Under the pieces are notes generated by a model that was given only the letters and a program-made list of their open reading frames with translations, was not told where the DNA came from and made no database searches. 64,000 nt of DNA, taken from NCBI GenBank assembly GCA_942492815.1, contig OW818658.1:5208125-5272124 (forward strand). The letters are read 5' to 3'. Made by a program: the position numbers and the translations under genes. Positions 4,632-55,625 of the stretch are shown here, piece by piece; the first letter of the stretch is position 1; each line of letters begins with the position of its first letter. This stretch comes from Candidatus Hydrogenedentales bacterium. GTDB lineage: Bacteria > Hydrogenedentota > Hydrogenedentia > Hydrogenedentales > JAEUWI01.

Positions 4632-5026
4632 TCAATCTATCTCCATGGAAAGCACGATGGGGCGGAGGCTCACCCCGACTCCGGGGCCATACCGCCAATT
4701 CGATCATGCATATTACGAAACTTGTACTTATTTTCTTCTTGCGTGACGCTGGGAGGGGCGAGGGCCGTTGTGGAACATGTACCACCTTCGGGATCAACGG
4801 CACCGCAACGTTCGATTGCACGCCTGACCCGCACGGGAAATCTGCGCGGGAACGGCCCGGCGTTATCGGCACCCAGGCACGAGATTGGCAGCTCCTGCCC
4901 TCAGGGTGACTGCACGGAGCCGAAAGGATAGCAATCAGGGGCGCAAATTGTCAAACGCCATGCGCGCGTTTCCCCGGTGTGCGCCGCAAAGCGCACCGCC
5001 TCCGGCTTCGCGGAAGTTATTTGTTT

Positions 5027-5917
5027 TCAGCAACTTGCTGGCTGAAGTCTGCCGGGTATCGCTGCGGCGGGTTGCACCTGCCAGATTGCGAGCACGGATT
5101 TGCCCACCAGATGGCCCAGCAGGGGATCCACCACGCGAGACACCGGGACCAGCCACTTATCCCAGAACTGAACCTGACCCAGGGTCGGCACCGAGGAGCG
5201 CAGCACCAGCCGGTTCGCTAGAGAGGCCATTACCCCGACCGAATCCAGATAGTAGAAATGGCCCGACAGCGTATTCGGTGGCCCGATAGCCGCCAGACTT
5301 TTCCACGTGTAGCGCCGGTAGTGGCCCACGGCCTCGTCAAAGGGTGAAAAGAGGCCCGGGTGGGCTGGGGCGAGAACGATCACGTGTCCGCCAATTCGGG
5401 TTCGGGCACCCGCGCGGGCCAGTTCCCCCGCGTCGTCCAGAATATGCTCCAGCACATCGATATAAAGTACGGTGTCAAACTGGACCTCGGGGGACAGGTC
5501 ATCCAGGGTGCCGGTAACCACTTCGACCGTTCGGGCGGGCCCGTCCAGTGCCGGAAAGACTGGAATTCGGGCGGCAAGCCCCGGATCCGGCTCCAGGCAC
5601 AACCAGCGACCCGACATTCCGCCACGCAACAGGTCCGTGTTCGTACCCATGCCGGCGCCAACTTCAAGGACATCCGGGCCCAGACACGACCGGATGCGAT
5701 CGGACCAATAGGCCTTCCAATTGCTGGCGTGGGCAAAAAGTTCGAGTTCCTCACCCGGATAGACGTTAGACAAAGCGTGTTTTCTCCTCGGCGCGCGCAG
5801 GTTCCAGAAAAGAGGGTACCCCATCCAGCGGCGAGCGCGCCAATGTCCTCTGTGCGCGACCGGCGACTTGCGATTGCGGGTTGCGGAAAACAGCGTTCTT
5901 GAGTACCATACTATCAT
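5027..5917 (-). CDS. Class I SAM-dependent methyltransferase
   Basis: SAM-binding motif I LEVGAGMGTNT and motif region VIVLAP; start codon uncertain (5917 or an internal ATG near 5824). Confidence 0.65.
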   Translation of the reverse strand: MIVWYSRTLFSATRNRKSPVAHRGHWRARRWMGYPLFWNLRAPRRKHALSNVYPGEELELFAHASNWKAYWSDRIRSCLGPDVLEVGAGMGTNTDLLRGGMSGRWLCLEPDPGLAARIPVFPALDGPARTVEVVTGTLDDLSPEVQFDTVLYIDVLEHILDDAGELARAGARTRIGGHVIVLAPAHPGLFSPFDEAVGHYRRYTWKSLAAIGPPNTLSGHFYYLDSVGVMASLANRLVLRSSVPTLGQVQFWDKWLVPVSRVVDPLLGHLVGKSVLAIWQVQPAAAIPGRLQPASC

Positions 5918-18584: not shown

Positions 18585-18989
18585 AGTTCGAAGCGGAGCT
18601 TCGGGTACTGCATTTCCAAGCGGAGCTCTTGACATTATCCATAAATTCTTTTGGATAGGAGACTATTTTATTAGTCCCGAAGGGACGGCATATCGTAGCC
18701 CAGGGTGGAGCGAGGCACGAGCGAAACCCTGGGTATTGTTGCAATAAGATCACTAGCCCCAGCGGGGCGGCATAGGAGAACGAGGGAAATCGTCCCCGGT
18801 CTTCTATGCCATCCCTTCGGGATTTAAGAGTGTTTGGGCCAGTTGACCCAGGGTTCCGCTCGTACCTCGCTTCACCCTGGGCTACGATATGCCGCCACTG
18901 CGTGGCTAATTGGACAACTTTATGTAAACCGTTTCAGTGTAATAGCTGTAAATTTATGGGTAATGACAAAAGCGAAGCCTGGGAACGAG
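18585..18989. repeat. Family-1 palindromic structured repeat element (~400 bp), copy A, in the gyrB-gyrA intergenic region
   Basis: Left module TAGTCCCGAAGGGACGGCA...GTAGCCCAGGGTGGAGCGAGGCACGAGCGAAACCCTGGG and its inverted counterpart on the right arm; related copies at 24621-25001, 27928-28258 and 28354-28689. Confidence 0.75.
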
Positions 18990-24600: not shown

Positions 24601-24620
24601 GAACTTTTCCTCTCGTTTCC

Positions 24621-25001
24621 CTCGTTCCCAAGCTCCGCTCTTGTCATTACCCACAAGTTTCGCGAGATAGGTGTCTATTGCTTTAGTCCCGAAGGGACGT
24701 CATATCGTAGCCCAGGGTGGAGCGAGGTACGAGCGAAACCCTGGGTATTATGGAAAAAATTCATTAGCCCCAGCGGGGCGGCATAGAAGAACCGGCAATC
24801 CATCCCTGGTTTTCTGTGTCATCCCTTCTGGATTCAATGTTTTTGGGGTCCGGTGACCCGGGGTTCCGCTCCTACCTCGCTGTACCCTGGGCTACGATAT
24901 GCCGCCACTACGTGGCTAATCAGATGCATTTCTGTGATCTGTTGCAGTGTCCTATGCTTAAGAACATATGGGCAATGACAAGAGCTCCGCTTGGGAACGA
25001 G
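24621..25001. repeat. Family-1 palindromic structured repeat element, copy B
   Basis: Terminal arms CTCGTTCCCAAGCTCCGCTCTTGTCATTACCC / GGGCAATGACAAGAGCTCCGCTTGGGAACGAG are inverted repeats; internal modules near-identical to copy A. Confidence 0.75.
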
Positions 25002-25030
25002 TGAAGGAGGATATTGTGGGCCCAGGGCAA

Positions 25031-25225
25031 TTGTGCAACAGACTGTTGCACAAATCACGGTTCGCCGGTCTAATGCAAATGCGACACAGGCTGCGCCGCA
25101 TTTATAAGTGATTTGTCGCCAGCAGCTTAAGGGATCAGCACTTGACCGATCTAATTTTGCAACAGCCTGTTCCAAAATTGACAGTATGGCTGGTTCCATC
25201 ATTTTTGCCACAGGCTGTGGCAAAA
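25031..25225. promoter_or_regulatory. Three 23-bp palindromes, consensus TTTTGCMACAG-N-CTGTKGCAAAA (candidate protein-binding sites)
   Basis: Perfect palindromes at 25031-25053 and 25203-25225, one-mismatch copy at 25155-25177. Confidence 0.5.
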
Positions 25226-25241
25226 TTGCCATTCCTTAATT

Positions 25242-27612: not shown

Positions 27613-27887
27613 CGATCCCGATACCCCTTTCCATAAATTGGCTGCGGCGTAGTATCCGGGACCCCGTCGGAAAGAATCAACAAGGTGCCGCCCAACAGGG
27701 GCTCAGGCATTCCTGCCTGAGACTGGGCTCACCCAGACATGGAAAGGCCCGGCGAGTATGTAAGGCGATCTGGGATCACAACGTCGTGTTCTCGAATGCC
27801 GAGACTTGCGCACACGCCCACAGGCCTGTCGAATGGCAACGTGAGCGCTGTCTCAGACAGGAATGTCTAAGCCCCTTGGGACCGCAC

Positions 27888-27927
27888 CCCGCGCCACGAT
27901 GCGACGTTGTTCCGCGAGGGGTGGGAG
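27888..27927 (-). pseudogene. Truncated silent copy of the hsdS 3' conserved region (cassette fragment 1)
   Basis: Minus-strand reading GTTLPPLAEQRRIVAR, then diverges into a GACAGGAATGTC hairpin motif and stops. Confidence 0.65.
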
Positions 27928-28258
27928 GGTGGTACCTCGAAGGGCCGGAAGGCGTTAGCCACGAAGTGGCGGCAGTTTGTAGCCTGGGGTGGAGCGAGGC
28001 ACGAGCGCAACCCCAGGATCACCAAACAAACACATCGAATCCGCGAAGCGGATGCCAGATTGCGATAACCCCGCTCTGCCATCCGCCGCAGGCGGATTCA
28101 ACCAGTGGGGGATTCGGACCTGGGGCTGAAGCCCCAGGCTAATGACTGATGTCCACTTCGTGGACTAAGAAAACGCTCGGAGAACACCGTCCCCTGTGCC
28201 GTCTTTCCCATATTCCTGGTTCACTCGTTCCCAATTCGTAATTCATAATTCATAATTC
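27928..28258. repeat. Family-1-like structured repeat element, tandem unit 1 downstream of hsdS
   Basis: Contains TAGCCACGAAGTGGCGGCA hairpin, CCTGGGGTGGAGCGAGGCACGAGCGCAACCCCAGG hairpin and mirrored GTCCACTTCGTGGAC / CCTGGGGCTGAAGCCCCAGG hairpins. Confidence 0.7.
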
Positions 28259-28353
28259 TCAATTCGTCAGTTCACTGACGCCCGCCTCCAACTGGCCCAC
28301 CAGCCCCATCAGCTCCTCCACCCGCGCCACGATGCGACGTTGTTCCGCCAGGA
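28259..28353 (-). pseudogene. In-frame silent copy of the hsdS 3' conserved-region cassette (fragment 2)
   Basis: Minus-strand translation AVRGTTFPLLAEQRRIVARVEELMGLVGQLEAGVSELTN-stop; differs from the hsdS C-terminus by a 15-codon in-frame deletion and a few substitutions. Confidence 0.7.
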
Positions 28354-28689
28354 GCGGAAAAGTGGTACCTCGAACGGCCGGAAGGCGTTAGCCACGAAGT
28401 GGCGGCAGTTTGTAGCCTGGGGTGGAGCGAGGCACGAGCGCAACCCCAGGATCACCAAACAAACACATCGAATCCGCGAAGCGGATGGCAGGTCACGAAG
28501 ACCATGCTCTGCCATCCGCTTCGCGGATTCAAAGAGTGGGGCATTCGGACCTGGGGCTGAAGCCCCAGGCTAATGACTGATGTCCACTTCGTGGACTAAG
28601 AAAACGCTCGGAGAACACCTCCCCCTGTACCGTTTTCCCCATATTCCTGGTTCACTCACACCCAATTCGTAATTCATAGTTCATAATTC
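28354..28689. repeat. Family-1-like structured repeat element, tandem unit 2 directly abutting the hsdS stop
   Basis: Near-identical to 27928-28258; includes a 22-bp perfect inverted repeat GAATCCGCGAAGCGGATGGCAG / CTGCCATCCGCTTCGCGGATTC. Confidence 0.7.
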
Positions 28690-30264
28690 TCAATTCGTCA
28701 GCGCGCTGACGCCCGCTTCCAGCAGCGCCACCGCCGTCCGGCGCGACGTCGCGATCTGCGCCTCCAACTGGTCCACTAGCCCCATCAACTCCTCCACCCG
28801 CGCCACGATGCGGCGTTGTTCCGCGAGGGGTGGGAGAGGAAATTGAATTGAACAAATAGTTTTCATGTTCAAAAATGGCTGGACTGCCTCGGATGCAATC
28901 CCACGAAGATACTCGGCTATAGCATTCAAGTAGATGCACAAATACTGGGCCGTAACCACCTCACCTACGCGAAATCTGCACAAACCCGTTGTGGAGAGCA
29001 TCCCCTCCGGCATCGACTCCGGATAGATGGCACAGAGTCCAATGCTTCCGACTTTACCTAAGAGTACATCGTTCGGCAATACGTTGTGCCGCCTCAGCAA
29101 CGCGAACTTTTCCTCTCGAATGTATCGAAGGTCGTTGGGATTAAACCTAAACGGCTTAACATTCACCATTCGAATCACGGGGACACCCGTCTCTATGTAA
29201 TCCGTCTTTATGTTTATAGATTGACCGAAGGGCCCGTCGACAATCGCTGACTCTGAAGCATTCCCTATCTCGCCAATTCTGCACCACGTCCAGGATTCTG
29301 GAAGCGGATGGTTGTGCCCACTCAGGCTAGAATCAGCCAGTGCTCTTGGTTTACGCATCTCCCCTGATTTAATCGCGATTTGTTTAGCGCTTTCCACCCT
29401 CGCGAGGAGCTCCTCCGCCCCTTCATCTGCCGGGTCCTGGGGCACGAGCTTTCCCCGAACGGCGAGGGTGAGGATGGACTTGCGGAGGTCGGCGGGGTCG
29501 ATGGGGCAGGCCGGGTGAAAGAGGAGCTTGAGGTTTTCCGGGGTCGGGTCCTCGTTGAACCGGGACACGCTGGCGCGGGCGAGATCGGCGTGCCGCGCGT
29601 CCCGTTCCCGCTGCTGCGCCTCCAGCCGGTCACACAGGGCCATCAAGGCATCCACCTTCGCCACAATCCGCTTCTGCTCCGCGAGCGGCGGGAGGGGAAT
29701 CTCGAATCGCTCAATCATCCCTTTTGTCAGCGCCTGCCGGGTTGCTCCAACTTGTACATCATCGATCATCACTTGAATCGCCGGACTGGCCAGAAACTTC
29801 GCAAGGAACACCGGGTCCAGATCGGGTGTGGGACGTATTATAGTCACGTGCTGGTTCACCCGCGCGCCCACCATCTCCACTGGCGCCGTCGTGACTCGGC
29901 CAATCGACGCACCTGTGATATTGAGGAGAACGTCATCCGCCTGCACGATCACATTCGAGAGCTTATCTGCTTGTTCGCTCGTCAAGAACACAAGGCCGAG
30001 AGGTTCGAAACCGCGAAAGTGAACGTTCATCGAACGAATGAGCGGAATCCCTTGAGTCACGTAAGAGACCCGGCCTCCCGACGGTGTTGCACCACTGCCG
30101 ATCTTGGAAGCCAACGACTTGAGAGTCACCAAAGGCCAGGGCTCGCCAACCGGCAACAGTTTTCCCGAGAAGGCAAGGTGAAGCACCAGTTCCCGCATCT
30201 TGTCCACAGCCCTGGGCGCGTCGGCGAACAGCTCAAAGTTCTCAAAAAAAGTGTCGAGGTTCAT
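28690..30264 (-). CDS. hsdS: Type I restriction-modification specificity subunit HsdS (two target-recognition domains)
   Basis: Central and C-terminal conserved repeats LPPLAEQKRIVAKVDALM... and LPPLAEQRRIVARVEELM...; ATG at 30264 preferred (ORF track start 30297). Confidence 0.9.
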   Translation of the reverse strand: MNLDTFFENFELFADAPRAVDKMRELVLHLAFSGKLLPVGEPWPLVTLKSLASKIGSGATPSGGRVSYVTQGIPLIRSMNVHFRGFEPLGLVFLTSEQADKLSNVIVQADDVLLNITGASIGRVTTAPVEMVGARVNQHVTIIRPTPDLDPVFLAKFLASPAIQVMIDDVQVGATRQALTKGMIERFEIPLPPLAEQKRIVAKVDALMALCDRLEAQQRERDARHADLARASVSRFNEDPTPENLKLLFHPACPIDPADLRKSILTLAVRGKLVPQDPADEGAEELLARVESAKQIAIKSGEMRKPRALADSSLSGHNHPLPESWTWCRIGEIGNASESAIVDGPFGQSINIKTDYIETGVPVIRMVNVKPFRFNPNDLRYIREEKFALLRRHNVLPNDVLLGKVGSIGLCAIYPESMPEGMLSTTGLCRFRVGEVVTAQYLCIYLNAIAEYLRGIASEAVQPFLNMKTICSIQFPLPPLAEQRRIVARVEELMGLVDQLEAQIATSRRTAVALLEAGVSALTN

Positions 30265-30676
30265 TGTACCCCCAGGGACTGACGCGCGCAGGCGCACTTG
30301 TCGCGAGCGGCACAGACCAGGCGGTCAATCGGCGATGGTGAAAGCGGCAGGCACGCCCATGCGCGTGGCTGTCCCGTCGTGAGGGAGATGCACGCGATAC
30401 TCAAAGACAGGCCCGGTCCGCGACACGCCCCCTGAATACGGGCGTCGCGCGTGCGTCGAGGGCGCTCGGGCCACGACGGGACAGCCACGGACGTTGAAAT
30501 ACCTGTTGCTCGTAAACGACCCCCGTCAATCCATGGTGCCTTTGCTACCGGAATACACCGGTCCGCGTCAGTCCCTGTGAGACTGCCCTTCACACCATCG
30601 CAGGCCCCTCGCAGGCAAGTCGCATCGGCGACTGACGCGACGCCACGGGCACGGGAAAGCCAACCGGAGCGGCCAG

Positions 30677-30865
30677 ACAAAGGAGCTTGGACATTCCTGT
30701 CCGAGACAAAGCCTGCGTTACAAATTGACAGGCCCGCTGGCATGTGCGAAACCTCCGCTATCAAAAATCGGGACTTTGGCACGCCTGGCTTTACAGACAA
30801 CTTCACAGGGCCCTTCGGTGTTGGCGCAGGCGCTGTCTCGGACAGGAATGTCCAAGCTCCTTTGT
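30677..30865. mobile_element. MITE-like element, 189 bp with 32-bp perfect terminal inverted repeats
   Basis: ACAAAGGAGCTTGGACATTCCTGTCCGAGACA at 30677-30708 and exact reverse complement at 30834-30865; related solo motif at 27845-27872; no ORF inside. Confidence 0.65.
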
Positions 30866-30913
30866 ACCGCGTATCGAAGCTGCGCGTAATACTCCCCGAA
30901 AACGAGTAGCCTC

Positions 30914-32350
30914 TCATCGCGTCAGCGCCTCCATCAATTGCGCCTTCAATGCTTCCCGGGTCTCGGCGATCTGCGCCAGGAGCTTTTCGTATTCCGGCAG
31001 GAGTTCGTCCACGTTGCCGGGGCCGGTGTCGGTGCTGTGGGGGTTCTTCAGGTCGAGGTTGTAGTTGCCCGCCTGGATGGCCGCCACGGAGACGCGCCAG
31101 GCCTGCTCGTTTTCCACGCGCTTCTTCCACCACTTTTTCTCGGGCGCGAATTCCTCAATGCGGATGGGCTTGGTCTTGTTGTAGCTCTTGGCGCCGGGGG
31201 GATAGGGGTGCTCGTAGTACCAGACCTCCTTCGTGGGCTTGCCCGCGTCGAAAAAGAGCAGATTGGTGCGGATGCCGGTGTAGGGGCTGAAGACGCCGTT
31301 GGGCAGGCGCACGATCGTGTGGAGGTTGAACTCGGTCAGGAGCCGCTCCTTGATGCGGGTCTTCACGCCTTCGCCGAAGAGGGTGCCGTCGGGCAACACG
31401 AGCCCCGCGCGGCCGCCAGGCTTGAGCAGCTTCATCAGCAGCACGAGGAAGAGATCGGCTGTTTCTCGCGTGCGGAATTCCGTCGGGAAGTTGGCCTCGA
31501 TCCCGTCTTCCTCCATGCCGCCGAAGGGCGGGTTGGTGACGATGACGTCCACGCGCTCGGTGGCCTTCCAGTCGCGCAGTGGCCGGGCGAGGGTGTTGTC
31601 GTGGCGCACGTTGGCGGGCACGTCGATGCCGTGGAGCATGAGGTTGGTCATGCAGAGGACATGGGGCAGGTGCTTCTTCTCGATGCCGTGGAAGCAGTCC
31701 TGGATCGCGCGCTCGTCGGCCTCGGTTTTGGCCTGCTTGCGCAGGTGCTCGATGGCGCAGGTGAGGAAGCCGCCGGTGCCGCAGGCGGGATCGAGGAGGG
31801 TCTCTCCGAGGCGCGGGTTGACCTGCTCCACGATGAACTGGGTGACGGCCCGGGGCGTGTAGAACTCGCCCGCGTTGCCCGCGGACTGGAGGTCTTTCAG
31901 AATGCGCTCGTAGATGTCGCCGAACATATGGCGGTCGTCGGAGGCGTTGAAATCGATGCCATTGATCTTGTTGATCACCTGGCGCATGAGGGTGCCGTTT
32001 TTCATGTAGTTGTTGGCGTCTTCAAAGCTCATGCGGATGAGCCCGGCAATCTTGTCCTGGCCGCCGGTGAGGGCCTTGAGCTTGGGCAGGAGCGTGTTGT
32101 TCACAAAATCGAGGAGGGCCTCGCCCGTGATGCCTTCCTCGTCCTTCGCCCAGTGGCTCCAGCGCAGGTGCGGGGGCAGGGGCGACTTGTAGTGGTCGCG
32201 GATGAGTTCGAGTTCCTGCTCGCGGTCATCGAATATTTTCAGGAAGAACATCCAACCGAGCTGCTCCAGGCGCTGGGCGTCGCCATAGGTGCCGGCGTCC
32301 TTGCGCATGATGTCCTGGATGGATTTTACGATATTGGAAACGTTGGACAT
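30914..32350 (-). CDS. hsdM: Type I restriction-modification DNA methyltransferase subunit HsdM
   Basis: N6-adenine methyltransferase motifs (TNPPFG, LDPACGTGGFL); 478 aa. Confidence 0.95.
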   Translation of the reverse strand: MSNVSNIVKSIQDIMRKDAGTYGDAQRLEQLGWMFFLKIFDDREQELELIRDHYKSPLPPHLRWSHWAKDEEGITGEALLDFVNNTLLPKLKALTGGQDKIAGLIRMSFEDANNYMKNGTLMRQVINKINGIDFNASDDRHMFGDIYERILKDLQSAGNAGEFYTPRAVTQFIVEQVNPRLGETLLDPACGTGGFLTCAIEHLRKQAKTEADERAIQDCFHGIEKKHLPHVLCMTNLMLHGIDVPANVRHDNTLARPLRDWKATERVDVIVTNPPFGGMEEDGIEANFPTEFRTRETADLFLVLLMKLLKPGGRAGLVLPDGTLFGEGVKTRIKERLLTEFNLHTIVRLPNGVFSPYTGIRTNLLFFDAGKPTKEVWYYEHPYPPGAKSYNKTKPIRIEEFAPEKKWWKKRVENEQAWRVSVAAIQAGNYNLDLKNPHSTDTGPGNVDELLPEYEKLLAQIAETREALKAQLMEALTR

Positions 32351-32394
32351 GGATTGGGCTTGCTTCTACGTGCGCGATTGCACGGGTGAGTTTA

Positions 32395-32467
32395 CAGGGA
32401 CGGCAGGGACATCAGGGACAACAGGAAGAGAGTATTCTGCCGTCCCTGATGTCGCTGCTGTCCCTGT
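32395..32467. promoter_or_regulatory. Imperfect inverted repeat with GGGAC heptad repeats between hsdR stop and hsdM start
   Basis: CAGGGACGGCAGGGACATCAGGGACAACAGG ... CTGCCGTCCCTGATGTCGCTGCTGTCCCTG in the 143-nt hsdR-hsdM spacer. Confidence 0.45.
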
Positions 32468-32493
32468 GAATGAGGGCGGATAATCCGCACATT

Positions 32494-34860
32494 TTACGCC
32501 ACCCTCCGGTACAGCTCGGCTTCGAGGGCCTGGATCGCCTCCAGGTACTGTTCCTTGCCGCCGAAGAGTTTCACGATCTCCGTGACGGTGCCGAATTGGG
32601 TCAGCGGAGCCACTTTCAATATTTCCAGGGACTCCACGCTCTGGATGCCGCCGTCGGCGAACTTGTCCAGCAGCGCGTCGAGCACGGCGCGCACCTCCGC
32701 GCCGTATTTCGCGAAGACGTGGCGCTTGCGCACGTTCTCCGCGCGCTCGCGCCGGGTGAGGGGCGGCTCGTCGAAGGCCACGTGGCAAATGAGGTCGAAG
32801 GCGTCGTAGTCGCGGCCCACCTGCTCGGCGAGTTCGTCCAGGAAGACGCCCTTGCCCGCGAGCTCTTCGAGGATGGCCTGCTTCCGCTCGGCATCGCTCC
32901 AAACGGTGAGAAATTCCGTCAGCGTGGCGAAGGACTTTTGCACGGTGCGGCGGCTGTAGTCGCGGAGGGATTCGGTGATGAGCTTGCCGTCGGCGTCGAG
33001 GTATTGCACGCGCTCGGTGACGATCTTTACTTCCACGTTGTCCACGTAGTACTTCTTCGGCCGTCCGCTGTCGCCCTCACCGTCGAGGGGCCAGGGCTCA
33101 CCGTCAATGTACACCTCGCCCTCTTCCTGAGCGTTCGTCGAACTTTCGTCCGGCGGCACCACGGAATCGTCGGGCCCGGGTACATAGATCTGCACCGGAT
33201 CGCCGTCGAAATCCGGATCGGCGAAGAGGGCCGTGGCGCGCTTGAAATCCATGATAGTGAAATAGAGCTTGCCGTAGTCCTCGCGGATGCGGGTGCCGCG
33301 ACCGATGATCTGCTTGAACTCGGTCATGGAGGCGATGCGCTTGTCGAGGACAATGAGGTGGCAGGTCTGGGCGTCAACGCCGGTGGACATGAGCTGGGAG
33401 GTGGTGGCGATGACCGGATAGTCCCGGCTGGGATCGATGAAATTGTCGAGCTGGGCCTTGCCCTCGGGGCTGTCGCCGGTGATGCGCATGACGTATTTGT
33501 CGTTGGCGGCGGCGAGGTCGGGGTTGGCGTTGACCAGGGCCTGGCGCATCCGCTCGGCGTGATCGATGTCGTCGCAGAAGACTATCGTCTTGGCGAAGCG
33601 GTTGGTGGCGTAGAGGAACTCGGTGATTTTCGCGGCCACGAGGGCGGTGCGCTTTTCGAGGACGAGGTTGCGATCAAAGTCGAGGATATTGTACTCGCGA
33701 TCTTCGATTTCGTGGCCGTATTTGTCGGTCTGGCCGCGCTCGGGCCGCCAGCCGTCGAGGTCTTTGTCGATGCCGACGCGGACCACCTTGTAGGGCGCGA
33801 GGAAGCCGTCGGCGATGCCTTGCTTGAGGGAGTAGGTGTAAATGGGTTCGCCGAAGTACTCGATGTTCGACACGTCGCGCGTTTCTTTGGGCGTTGCGGT
33901 GAGGCCGATCTGGGTGGCGGAGCTGAAGTACTCCAGGATCTGCCGCCAGTTGGCGTCGTCGGCCGCGCTGCCGCGATGGCACTCGTCGATCACGATGAGA
34001 TCGAAGAAGTCGGGCGAAAACTGTTTGTAGATGTTCTGATCTTCCTCGGTGCCGCTGACGGCCTGGTAGAGGGCGAGGTAGATCTCGAAGGCCTTGTCCG
34101 CCGTGCGGTTCGTGATCTTGGTCATGGCCTTGCCGAAGGGCTTGAAGTCGTTGCTCTTGGTCTGGTCGGCGAGGATGTTGCGATCGACGAGAAAGAGGAT
34201 GCGTCTGCGCGCCCCGGCCTTCCACAGCCGCCAGATGATCTGGAAGGCGGTGTAGGTCTTGCCAGTGCCGGTGGCCATAACGAGGAGGATGCGCTTCTCG
34301 CCGCGCGCGATGGCGTCCACGGTGCGGTTGATGGCGACGAGCTGGTAGTAGCGCGGGGCGCGGTCGGAGCCGTCGTCGTAGTAATCCTGGGTGGTCACGG
34401 CTTCCTGCGCGTCGGTGTAGCCTTTGGCCTGGCGATAGCGGGCCCAGAGTTCTTCGGGCGTGGGGAATTGATCGAGGGGGATCTCGCGCTCGACTGTGCC
34501 TCCGGTGCCAGTGCGGTCGTGCTCCAGAAAGGTGTCGCCGTTGGAGCTGTAAGCAAAGGGCACGTCGAGGATCTCGGCATACTCGAGCGCCTGCTGCATG
34601 CCCGCGCCCACAGCGTGGTTATTGTCCTTGGCCTCGACGACGGCAATGGGCATGTTGGGCTTGTAGAAAAGGAGGTAATCGGCTTTTTTCGCCTCGCCCC
34701 GCGACACGGACTTGCCCCGGACGATCACGCGCCCCTTGGTGAAGTGATACTCTTCGAGCATCTGGGTCATCACGTCCCACTTCGATCCGCCGGGTCCGAG
34801 GATCGCCGGCGTGATGAACTTGGTGCGGATGTCGGTCTCTGTCAGTGCCTTTTTGTCCAC
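32494..34860 (-). CDS. hsdR: Type I restriction enzyme endonuclease/helicase subunit HsdR
   Basis: 788 aa; N-terminal nuclease region, SF2 helicase motifs (ATGTGKT Walker A, DECHR); canonical HsdR N-terminus. Confidence 0.95.
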
Positions 34861-34953: not shown

Positions 34954-35967
34954 CTATTTCGCCTTTTCCTCGATCCGCTTTGCTTCCCGCTCCAGTTCAG
35001 CCATTTCGTCGCTGGCGGCCTCTTCATCCAGTCTTCGCCGGTTGAACTTTTCGTACTCCCCTTCCGCGCGGGATTTTGCGAGGTCTGCGCTGATGGTGCC
35101 CGCGTTCTCCAGAACTTCCCGCCCGTTGAACTGGAGGAAGGCATTGAGCTTCCCCTCCCAATCGGCCATGTGCATGGGCTGCTTTCGCTCCGCCTGGTCT
35201 TCGGCGTAGTCGAGGTACATCGTTACGATTCGGTTGAGTCCACGCACTTCCTCCTCGGTGAGGTAGTTTTTCGCGATGGCCACGTCGCCCTTCCGAACTT
35301 TTGCGCCTTTCCAGGTGGTCAGGCCCATGTTGGGCTGGGTGGCGTCCACGCGTTCCACGATCAGCTCGGCAGCCGTGTGGCCGTGGGTCGCCCAGTGAAG
35401 TTTGTTCTGCACTGCCTTGAAGAAATGTCGGGCCTGTTCGGAGTTGGGTTCATAGTCCACAGCGAGGGCGTAGATATCCTGAATCTTCCGGTAGAAGCGT
35501 TTCTCCGAAGCGCGGATATCACGGATCCGCTCCAGGAGTTCGTCATAGTAGTCCGCGCCGAGATTGCGGCCCTCCTTGAGCCGCTCGTCGTCCATGGCGA
35601 AGCCCTTGACGAGGTATTCCCGGAGCCGCTCCGTGGCCCAGCGACGAAACTGGGTGCCCCGGTGGGAGCGAACGCGATATCCGACGGCGATGATCACGTC
35701 GAGGTTGTAGTGTTTGATTGCCCGCTGGACTTCCCGCGCGCCCTCGGATTGAACTGTCAAGTATTCCTTGACAGTTGCCCCTTCGTCGAGTTCGCCTTCC
35801 TCGTAAATATTTCGAATATGGAGACTTATGTTCTGCTTGCTGCTATGAAACAAGTCTACCAATTGCGCCTGGCTGAGCCAGACGGTCTCGTCTTCCAAGC
35901 GCACGTCGATGCGCGTCTTCCCGCCCTCGGGCTGGTATATGAGGATTTCCGATTGTGGTTCCGGCAT
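34954..35967 (-). CDS. rhuM: RhuM family protein (uncharacterised, frequently linked to Type I R-M loci)
   Basis: N-terminal region ...IYQPEGGKTRIDVRLEDETVWLSQAQLVDLFHSSKQNISLHIRNIYEEGEL typical of RhuM; directly upstream of hsdR on the same strand. Confidence 0.8.
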   Translation of the reverse strand: MPEPQSEILIYQPEGGKTRIDVRLEDETVWLSQAQLVDLFHSSKQNISLHIRNIYEEGELDEGATVKEYLTVQSEGAREVQRAIKHYNLDVIIAVGYRVRSHRGTQFRRWATERLREYLVKGFAMDDERLKEGRNLGADYYDELLERIRDIRASEKRFYRKIQDIYALAVDYEPNSEQARHFFKAVQNKLHWATHGHTAAELIVERVDATQPNMGLTTWKGAKVRKGDVAIAKNYLTEEEVRGLNRIVTMYLDYAEDQAERKQPMHMADWEGKLNAFLQFNGREVLENAGTISADLAKSRAEGEYEKFNRRRLDEEAASDEMAELEREAKRIEEKAK

Positions 35968-36237
35968 GCGGCCCTCCCGTTGTCCCGTGCCCCCGGTGCT
36001 TGACGTCGCTGGTGGCGGCGCTCACTGGAATCCATACTGCCGCACGGGATATTGAAAGCTTAGCGCAGGCTGCGGGGATGGCGCAACGCAAACGGGAGCG
36101 CGGGTTTTCCTACCCGCGTATCGGGCAACTTAGTTGCGCGATCAAGTGAGGCGGGGCTACGGGCGGAACCGAATGCGCCGTTGGCGCAACCACGTGTAGG
36201 AAGACCCGTGCTCCCGGTTTCCGTCCTGAACTCCCCC

Positions 36238-55527: not shown

Positions 55528-55625
55528 GCGGGAGCACGGACATTCCTGTCCGTGTCCTCGTGCAACGGAGTTGCACGATACGCGGGTAAGAAAACCCGCG
55601 CTCCCGAGTACTGGAGTAAAACCAA

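Follow-up and report, generated by a model that had tools for sequence, protein, structure and literature searches.

The window, by which we mean the whole 64-kb stretch of DNA analysed here, contains a type I restriction-modification (R-M) operon in which hsdM and hsdS are separated by a long non-coding spacer, and a 189-bp palindromic element lies within this spacer. The Hydrogenedentota are a candidate phylum for which MAGs are nearly the only source of knowledge. The R-M island, together with about 10 kb of other genes (a two-component system, a lipid acyltransferase and a CDP-diglyceride synthase), is located at 15972-37618, inside the origin-proximal recF-dciA ... gyrB-gyrA cluster. The features of the window are listed below in order of position.

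27693..27880, no strand assigned: copy 2 of the palindromic element, diverged, with its internal sequence inverted relative to copy 1.
27888 to about 28796-28836, minus strand: tandem units between hsdS and copy 2, each made of the last ~35 hsdS codons and an Acido-Lenti-1 doublet.
28690..30264, minus strand: hsdS, 524 aa, with two target-recognition domains (Pfam Methylase_S in two stretches; 100% identical to P0121).
30265..30913, minus strand: non-coding hsdM-hsdS spacer, 649 bp (hsdM stop at 30914, hsdS ATG at 30264).
30343..30510 (168 bp), no strand assigned: second, unrelated imperfect palindrome, with 39-nt arms that are 74% complementary.
30677..30865, no strand assigned: palindromic doublet element, copy 1 (paired arms and a long-hairpin fold).
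30677..30717, no strand assigned: left arm of copy 1, a REP-like unit (R1 covariance model 54.8 bits, E = 1e-13).
30686-30693 / 30698-30705: local 8-bp hairpin of the left arm, with the loop TTCC at 30694-30697 (covariation across 55 arms).
30825..30865, no strand assigned: right arm of copy 1, an inverted REP-like unit (R1 53.5 bits; local hairpin at 30837-30856).
30914..32350, minus strand: hsdM (Pfam N6_Mtase 7e-72, HsdM_N).
32494..34860, minus strand: hsdR of the EcoAI/EcoEI type (Pfam ResIII, EcoEI_R_C).
34954-35967, minus strand: rhuM, between dciA and hsdR (Pfam).
55535..55554, plus strand: singlet arm hairpin CACGGACA-TTCC-TGTCCGTG, in the spacer between a PSCyt/PSD1 gene and a DUF1501 gene.

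The 32-mer ACAAAGGAGCTTGGACATTCCTGTCCGAGACA is found exactly at 30677-30708 on the plus strand and at 30834-30865 on the minus strand, and a comparable inverted match occurred in none of 100 dinucleotide-preserving shuffles. The initial annotation, which had described a 189-bp segment bounded by 32-bp perfect inverted repeats, was therefore exact on this point. A repeat finder extended the arms to 41 nt with 95% complementarity, the outer 32 nt being perfect and 107 nt lying between the arms; with an arm-arm identity of 0.95, copy 1 is the best preserved of the 14 doublets compared. Folding of the 203-nt region 30670-30872, which adds 7 nt of flank at either end of the element, gave a single long hairpin, with a free energy of -113.4 kcal/mol (z = -11.4) as RNA and -62.3 kcal/mol (z = -8.4) as DNA. 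Two long ORFs overlap copy 1 and neither has a Pfam match, which agrees with the earlier description of the segment as non-coding. No Rfam family was found at copy 1, either at the gathering score or at E <= 1, and the plasmid, phage and viral collections contained nothing similar to the element.

The start of hsdS was placed at the ATG at 30264, where the 524-aa NCBI protein P0121 also begins; the HsdS N-terminus read from this ATG (MNLDTFFENF...) aligns with the HsdS starts of two related R-M loci (L023 and L024). The distance between hsdM and hsdS had been reported as 616 bp, a figure counted from an in-frame GTG at 30297. The long spacer stands, but its true length is 649 bp. In related EcoAI-type systems (L024, L001 and L011) the two genes overlap, and in L024, which comes from a Hydrogenedentes MAG, they do so by ATGA. 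The order in L023 is hsdM-yhcG-hsdS with overlapping stops and starts, and on the P0004 contig DUF1016/YhcG_C genes sit between hsdM and hsdS. The closest relative, a contig of GCA_041443065.1, encodes HsdM and HsdR proteins 98% and 96% identical to those of the window. Its hsdR-hsdM gap is 143 bp, as in the window, its hsdM-hsdS gap is 304 bp, and it is without rhuM. Because the relatives have overlapping genes or carry yhcG, and even the nearest relative has a spacer of only 304 bp, the 649-bp spacer is regarded as derived, and the separation of hsdM and hsdS is indeed atypical, as had been proposed.

The spacer of the window exceeds that of GCA_041443065.1 by 345 bp, that is, by more than the 189-bp element. 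From the length of the spacer we infer an insertion of the element into the hsdM-hsdS junction; it would have entered a spacer that is absent from the ancestral, translationally coupled hsdM-hsdS arrangement. In the fold of the entire spacer, the imperfect palindrome at 30343-30510 forms a second long hairpin, of which no further copy exists in the window or in the fetched loci. This palindrome and the 189-bp element together roughly account for the 345-bp excess over the closest relative. Two candidate remnants in the spacer were considered and rejected. For the 48 nt that separate the hsdM stop from the element, alignments to three hsdS starts gave no support for a vestigial hsdS 5' end (p = 0.2-0.46), and tblastn and blastn returned nothing for a yhcG/DUF1016 remnant. 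At the other side of the operon, dciA is followed by hsdR on the GCA_041443065.1 contig. Since the gap between these two genes in this closest relative is only 89 bp, the comparison of gene order marks rhuM, at the margin of the R-M island, as a gene gained or lost in a lineage-specific way.

Comparison of the copies gives a basic unit of about 40 nt, which consists of CAAAGGRGCT, an 8-bp hairpin with a TTCC loop, and then GAGACAAGGCSCACG; the consensus is CAAAGGRGCT-YRGRCA-TTCC-TGYCYG-AGACAAGGCSCACG. In the doublets two such units are inverted, their termini CAAAGG...CCTTTG are conserved between copies, and the inner 107 nt are only weakly conserved. The window contains a second doublet (copy 2), which is located just past hsdS and adjoins a truncated hsdS 3' fragment. 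It is 71-88% identical to copy 1 over parts of its length, and nhmmer matched the two with 55.0 bits on the minus strand and 33.2 bits on the plus strand. With R1, the arm at 27690-27733 reaches 54.6 bits and the arm at 27840-27883 reaches 52.9 bits; copy 2 folds with a free energy of -117.4 kcal/mol (z = -7.2). Its arms contain AGGCATTCCTGCCT and AGACAGGAATGTCT; their differences from copy 1 are compensatory, and the small hairpin is preserved.

A recurrence of the hairpin core had been noticed earlier at 27845-27872 and near 55540. The former proved to be larger than claimed, as 27855-27868 belongs to the right arm of the full second copy, and the latter was confirmed as an exact singlet hairpin. 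The singlet has the exact 14-nt core at 55538-55551 (R1 32.9 bits, E = 3e-7), and a T-A to A-T double change leaves its stem intact. It starts 8 nt past the stop of the PSCyt/PSD1 gene and 69 nt ahead of the DUF1501 gene. When the arm covariance model was run on the window without filters, five arms were found (those of copies 1 and 2 and the singlet) along with one marginal candidate, and the total for the 64-kb window is two doublets and one or two singlets. The marginal candidate is an arm-like hairpin at 36087-36130, CAAACGGGAGC-GCGGGT-TTTCCT-ACCCGC, with 16 bits and E ~0.03. It lies in the dciA-rhuM spacer, at the opposite edge of the R-M island, and could be a decayed singlet or a chance match.

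For the search in other genomes we used a degenerate 26-nt arm pattern that fits all four doublet arms of the window, and exact matches were counted. In the species-representative genome set, 17 loci matched, and all of them belong to four MAGs: Candidatus Hydrogenedentales JBHEKR01 and JBIJDL01, Candidatus Hydrogenedentota JAUIMA01 and the uncultured-bacterium bin CAXBPH01. The pattern is also present in 5 metagenome contigs, one locus each, and absent from the viral contigs. With 22 further loci matching, the repeat is not unique to this locus, and the family is multi-copy and dispersed as the initial annotation had supposed. Across the window and the 22 loci there are 63 arms when mismatches are allowed and 67 by profile. 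A profile search of L024, a Hydrogenedentes R-M locus of 22 kb, found no arms, and there are none at the related R-M locus L023. Because L024 is without arms and its hsdM and hsdS overlap, we consider the family to be lineage-restricted. One of the loci, L014 (Hydrogenedentota Co_bin.7), is syntenic with the window at 52.7-57.1 kb, with about 72% nucleotide identity. This palindromic repeat family in Hydrogenedentota is previously undescribed, but the kind of element is known.

The arms occur in several arrangements. There are 14 inverted doublets, 2 in the window and 12 elsewhere; in most of them some 153 nt separate the arm starts, which is also the distance in the window. There are, in addition, about 10 singlets, halves or arrays, and the ratio of these to the doublets is biased by ascertainment with the exact 26-nt pattern. 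Single arms and half-elements are found in L014, L006, L011, L019 and L021, and in L002 and L012 a right half adjoins a left half. The singlets look like decayed remnants. Tandem clusters are also present. For example, L015 carries seven tandem 100-bp units at 4720-5424 (85% matches), starting 13 nt past a DUF1501 gene, and each unit is composed of one arm and a conserved 60-nt tail. A CRISPR reading of this array was rejected, since the would-be spacers are themselves conserved and the array is hence a 100-bp tandem repeat. In L016 (positions 1-400, MAG JBHEKR01) the tandem unit is 281 bp long and consists of an hsdS 3' end and a doublet, with the identical 12 nt CTTCGCGAATCC after each element. 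A paralogous doublet is located at 1-275 of L001, 2-3 nt past an intact hsdS stop. Both of these JBHEKR01 contigs, L016 and L001, begin inside the repeat, and the assembly is broken there.

Besides the arms that fit the consensus, L011 (2540-2790) and L014 (1-120 / 324-445) contain hairpin repeats with a common CAAAGGGG...CCCCTTTG frame. Their stems are different (GACCATGAATGGTC; CTCAGCC-TGGAA-GGCTAAG), and these variants suggest that the MAGs harbour a broader range of related REP-like subfamilies.

There is evidence that the hairpin of the unit is selected as a structure. Among 55 distinct arms, 96.4% of the cells of the 8-bp stem are paired, and double changes were observed in 52 cells as compared with 18.5 in column shuffles, a value of 52 being reached in 0 of 500 shuffles. 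Two stem positions switch the type of pair, with counts of AU 28, GC 19 and CG 3 at one and GC 29 and AU 25 at the other. When the partner columns were slid, pairing in the stem fell to 13-40%. The pairing is not an artefact of ascertainment, because R and Y could vary independently of each other in the search pattern. Unlike the covarying stem, the TTCC loop and the flanks of the arm are conserved in sequence. At the scale of the whole doublet, RNAalifold on ten full elements gave an arm-arm stem of 28 consensus pairs, 13 of them with compensatory change, and the two arms are more similar within doublets (identity 0.78) than between doublets (0.70; permutation p = 2e-4). Both the small hairpin and the arm-arm pairing are thus maintained through compensatory changes.

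We examined the genomic context of 26 copies, and none lies inside a confident gene according to heuristic gene calls that were partly checked with Pfam; one weak heuristic ORF spans the L006 copy. The intergenic spaces involved are bounded by convergent, co-directional and divergent genes. The flanking genes have common housekeeping or defence roles and include those for EF-G, carA, a PPDK-like enzyme, RecD2, PQQ and FMN dehydrogenases, sulfatase-modifying enzymes and DUF1501 proteins; no transposase is among them. Restriction genes adjoin the elements in 5-6 of about 20 loci: the copies in the window, L001, L016 and L011 have type I R-M genes beside them, and GmrSD is the neighbour in L008. 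Such frequent restriction-gene neighbours may reflect the tolerance of insertions in defence islands.

In the initial annotation the segment was taken for a miniature transposable element inserted into the operon. The dispersed repeat family is consistent with this, but two defining features of a MITE were not found. On the MITE reading, the segment would be a deletion derivative of an insertion sequence, and a DDE transposase with the 32-41-bp terminal repeats as its binding sites would have moved it by cut-and-paste; the long, near-perfect terminal inverted repeats, the small non-coding body, the multiple dispersed copies and the conserved termini all accord with it. A target-site duplication of 2-9 bp was looked for at 13 boundary offsets (0-12) in 12 doublets, however, and no consistent direct repeat emerged. 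A 9-10-bp repeat around the L013 copy was discarded as a candidate, as it belongs to the adjacent arm. Neither a full-length parent element nor a transposase is present in the 206 kb of element-bearing DNA, and there are no inward-facing arm pairs that enclose an ORF. Moreover, single arms, half-elements and tandem arrays are common, and compensatory change in the stem fits recognition of a structure rather than recognition of a sequence by a transposase. We therefore find a classical MITE unlikely.

In our preferred explanation, which we hold to be probably correct, the Hydrogenedentota lineage has a dispersed family of palindromic repeats that are non-coding and extragenic, the 189-bp segment is one of the copies, and the REPIN is the closest functional analogue. 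This explanation is placed ahead of the MITE because a covarying stem stands beside a conserved loop and conserved flanks, because doublets, singlets and tandem clusters that carry flanking sequence occur together, and because there is no target-site duplication. As RNA or single-stranded DNA, the two inverted units and the spacer of about 107 nt would fold into one long hairpin. Spread would then proceed through single-stranded hairpin DNA by means of a trans-acting, structure-recognising RAYT/IS200-like HUH tyrosine transposase, or through recombination. We use the label REPIN by analogy, and both the mobility and the mobilising enzyme are putative. A scan for the RAYT/HUH (Y1) motif in 1,109 six-frame ORFs of at least 80 aa, covering 206 kb of the window and the loci, returned no match.

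It had also been suggested that the element could drive or uncouple the expression of hsdS. The first part finds no support in the promoter analysis: no sigma-70-like promoter was detected in 28500-32500 on either strand, and the lone TTGACA inside the element (30725-30730) faces hsdM and has no -10 partner. The same TTGACA would face hsdS if the core were inverted, and this raises the question of an inverton, in which a site-specific recombinase flips the 107-nt core and switches hsdS on or off. Inverted repeats do enclose a short segment directly upstream of the specificity gene, and the orientation of the core is opposite in copies 1 and 2. The TTGACA is, however, without a -10 partner, and no recombinase was found among the Pfam-analysed genes of the window, which include most neighbours within about 10 kb. 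Loci that are nearly identical but come from different samples align collinearly (L009/L022, L010/L020 and L014/L019), and the L009/L022 alignment spans a doublet with the core in the same orientation. The arms also occur singly and in direct tandem, and they covary as hairpins. We consider an inverton extremely improbable.

The second part of the suggestion fares better. A terminator scan at 30677-30865 gave no call, with only UUU after the stem, and hsdS possesses its own Shine-Dalgarno-like run of GGGGG a few nt before the ATG. Because no promoter or terminator is called at the element and hsdS has this GGGGG run, an effect of the element would most likely be post-transcriptional. It is plausible that the hairpin could uncouple hsdS from hsdM if both are co-transcribed. 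Read-through from hsdM would produce an RNA with a near-perfect double-stranded stem of 41 bp, which would be both a substrate of the RNase III type and a barrier to 3' exonucleases. Cleavage or blocking at the stem would make the expression of hsdS separate from that of hsdM, and probably lower, and hsdS would depend on its own ribosome-binding site for translation. Effects of this kind are familiar from the palindromic intergenic repeats of Proteobacteria. The paired repeats of Correia-containing transcripts are cleaved by RNase III (PMC2649163, PMC10969869).

An effect on hsdS would also be expected if the segment were a cis-regulatory structure of the R-M operon selected by the host (an mRNA processing site, an attenuator or a bidirectional terminator) that is merely repeated elsewhere. 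The hairpin is very stable and lies within a probable operon, its termini have an A-tract / U-tract flavour (CAAAGG...CCUUUG), restriction genes are recurrent neighbours, and a lower expression of S could benefit an M2S1 enzyme. Most copies, however, flank unrelated housekeeping genes in every orientation, including the divergent one; the stem lacks a terminator call and is followed by only 3 U; the internal 107 nt are poorly conserved between copies; and the related R-M loci L024 and L023 are without the element. This explanation is very unlikely in our judgement.

A second group of palindromic repeats exists in the window. Matches to the Rfam motif Acido-Lenti-1 (RF01687) appear as inverted pairs at 18613-18985, 24617-25005, 27950-28170 and 28385-28600. 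These pairs are the inner arms (64-65 nt, 83-88% complementary) of palindromic intergenic repeats of about 390 bp, which also have outer inverted repeats of 35-43 nt. One repeat is in the gyrA-gyrB spacer, another lies past the 3' end of a response regulator gene, and hsdS is followed by two repeats that have diverged. As a sequence family they are distinct from the element studied here, but they resemble it in being inverted pairs within palindromic intergenic repeats, and in L011 such a sequence adjoins an arm of the present family. These repeats have the look of a further REPIN/MITE-like family, here in a phylum that the name of the motif does not cover, and they suggest that the Rfam 'sRNA' is an arm of a repeat. 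Close to the second of these repeats, between it and the acyltransferase gene, there are three similar short palindromes TTGCAACAGNCTGTTGCA at 25030-25230, and this spacer is AT-richer, with a GC content of about 0.49-0.52.

The tandem units between hsdS and copy 2 are about 434-476 bp long, and the stretches 27888-28352 and 28321-28828 are 83.5% identical over 510 nt. The hsdS 3' fragments in them begin with AEQRRIVARVEEL and run to the stop, a 40-mer of the conserved region is present three times (27888, 28321 and 28797), and copy 2 marks the exact point at which the leftmost fragment is cut off. A role of these fragments in specificity switching was rejected, since a target-recognition domain is absent from them and the C-terminal conserved helix is all that is present. 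A more far-reaching proposal would combine these observations. The present family and the Acido-Lenti-1 doublets would be two REPIN-type populations that are kept by as yet undiscovered RAYT-like enzymes and accumulate preferentially at R-M loci; their RNA hairpins would set the HsdM:HsdS ratio, and their DNA would seed tandem duplications of the hsdS 3' end, as in the window and in L016. We rate this combined proposal as decidedly improbable. If it were true, the Rfam 'Acido-Lenti-1 sRNA' would become an arm of a mobile repeat.

In practical terms, family members break assemblies, and several contigs start or end in the repeats; such repeats can also be mistaken for regulatory RNAs. In the window, one copy of the family lies within a type I R-M operon, and in the relatives of this operon hsdM and hsdS are translationally coupled. 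Should the mRNA be processed at the hairpin, the operon would offer a natural case of a selfish repeat rewiring the subunit stoichiometry of a restriction system.

The element can be compared with several known systems. ERIC/IRU sequences are imperfect palindromes in transcribed intergenic regions and alter mRNA stability (PMC10969869), and MITEs are reviewed in the same work (PMC10969869). The present family differs from ERIC/IRU and from bacterial MITEs by its unrelated sequence and its host range, and the target-site duplication and parent insertion sequence of MITEs have no counterpart in the DNA analysed here. The Correia elements (CREE, or NEMIS) of Neisseria are similar in being non-coding elements of about 100-200 bp with long terminal inverted repeats. 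Correia elements are associated with a TA target duplication. They are often co-transcribed with adjacent genes, whose expression is altered by RNase III cleavage, and they carry IHF sites and outward promoters (PMC2649163, PMC10969869). In contrast, the TA duplication, the IHF sites and the outward promoters were not found in the present element, and there is no sequence similarity.

The REPIN, defined by Bertels and Rainey, is a REP doublet hairpin of Pseudomonas and Enterobacteria that is mobilised by RAYT (PMC3116915), and REPIN-RAYT systems have been described mainly from Proteobacteria (PMC5581495). Hydrogenedentota are outside the groups in which these systems have been described (PMC5581495), and no RAYT was found in the 206 kb scanned. 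The unit of about 40 nt and the doublet of 189 bp are larger than those of classical REPINs; in SBW25 the REP doublets fall into 71-bp and 110-bp classes (PMC3116915), and 107 nt lie between the arms of the element here. The likeness is found in the organisation. A short palindromic REP-like unit is the building block, and an inverted pair of units with a spacer gives a long hairpin (PMC3116915). Both kinds of element are extragenic, leave decayed singlets, are without target-site duplication and occur in clusters, which in REPINs are tandem repeats that include the flanking sequence (PMC3116915), just as the tandem clusters of the present family carry their flanks.
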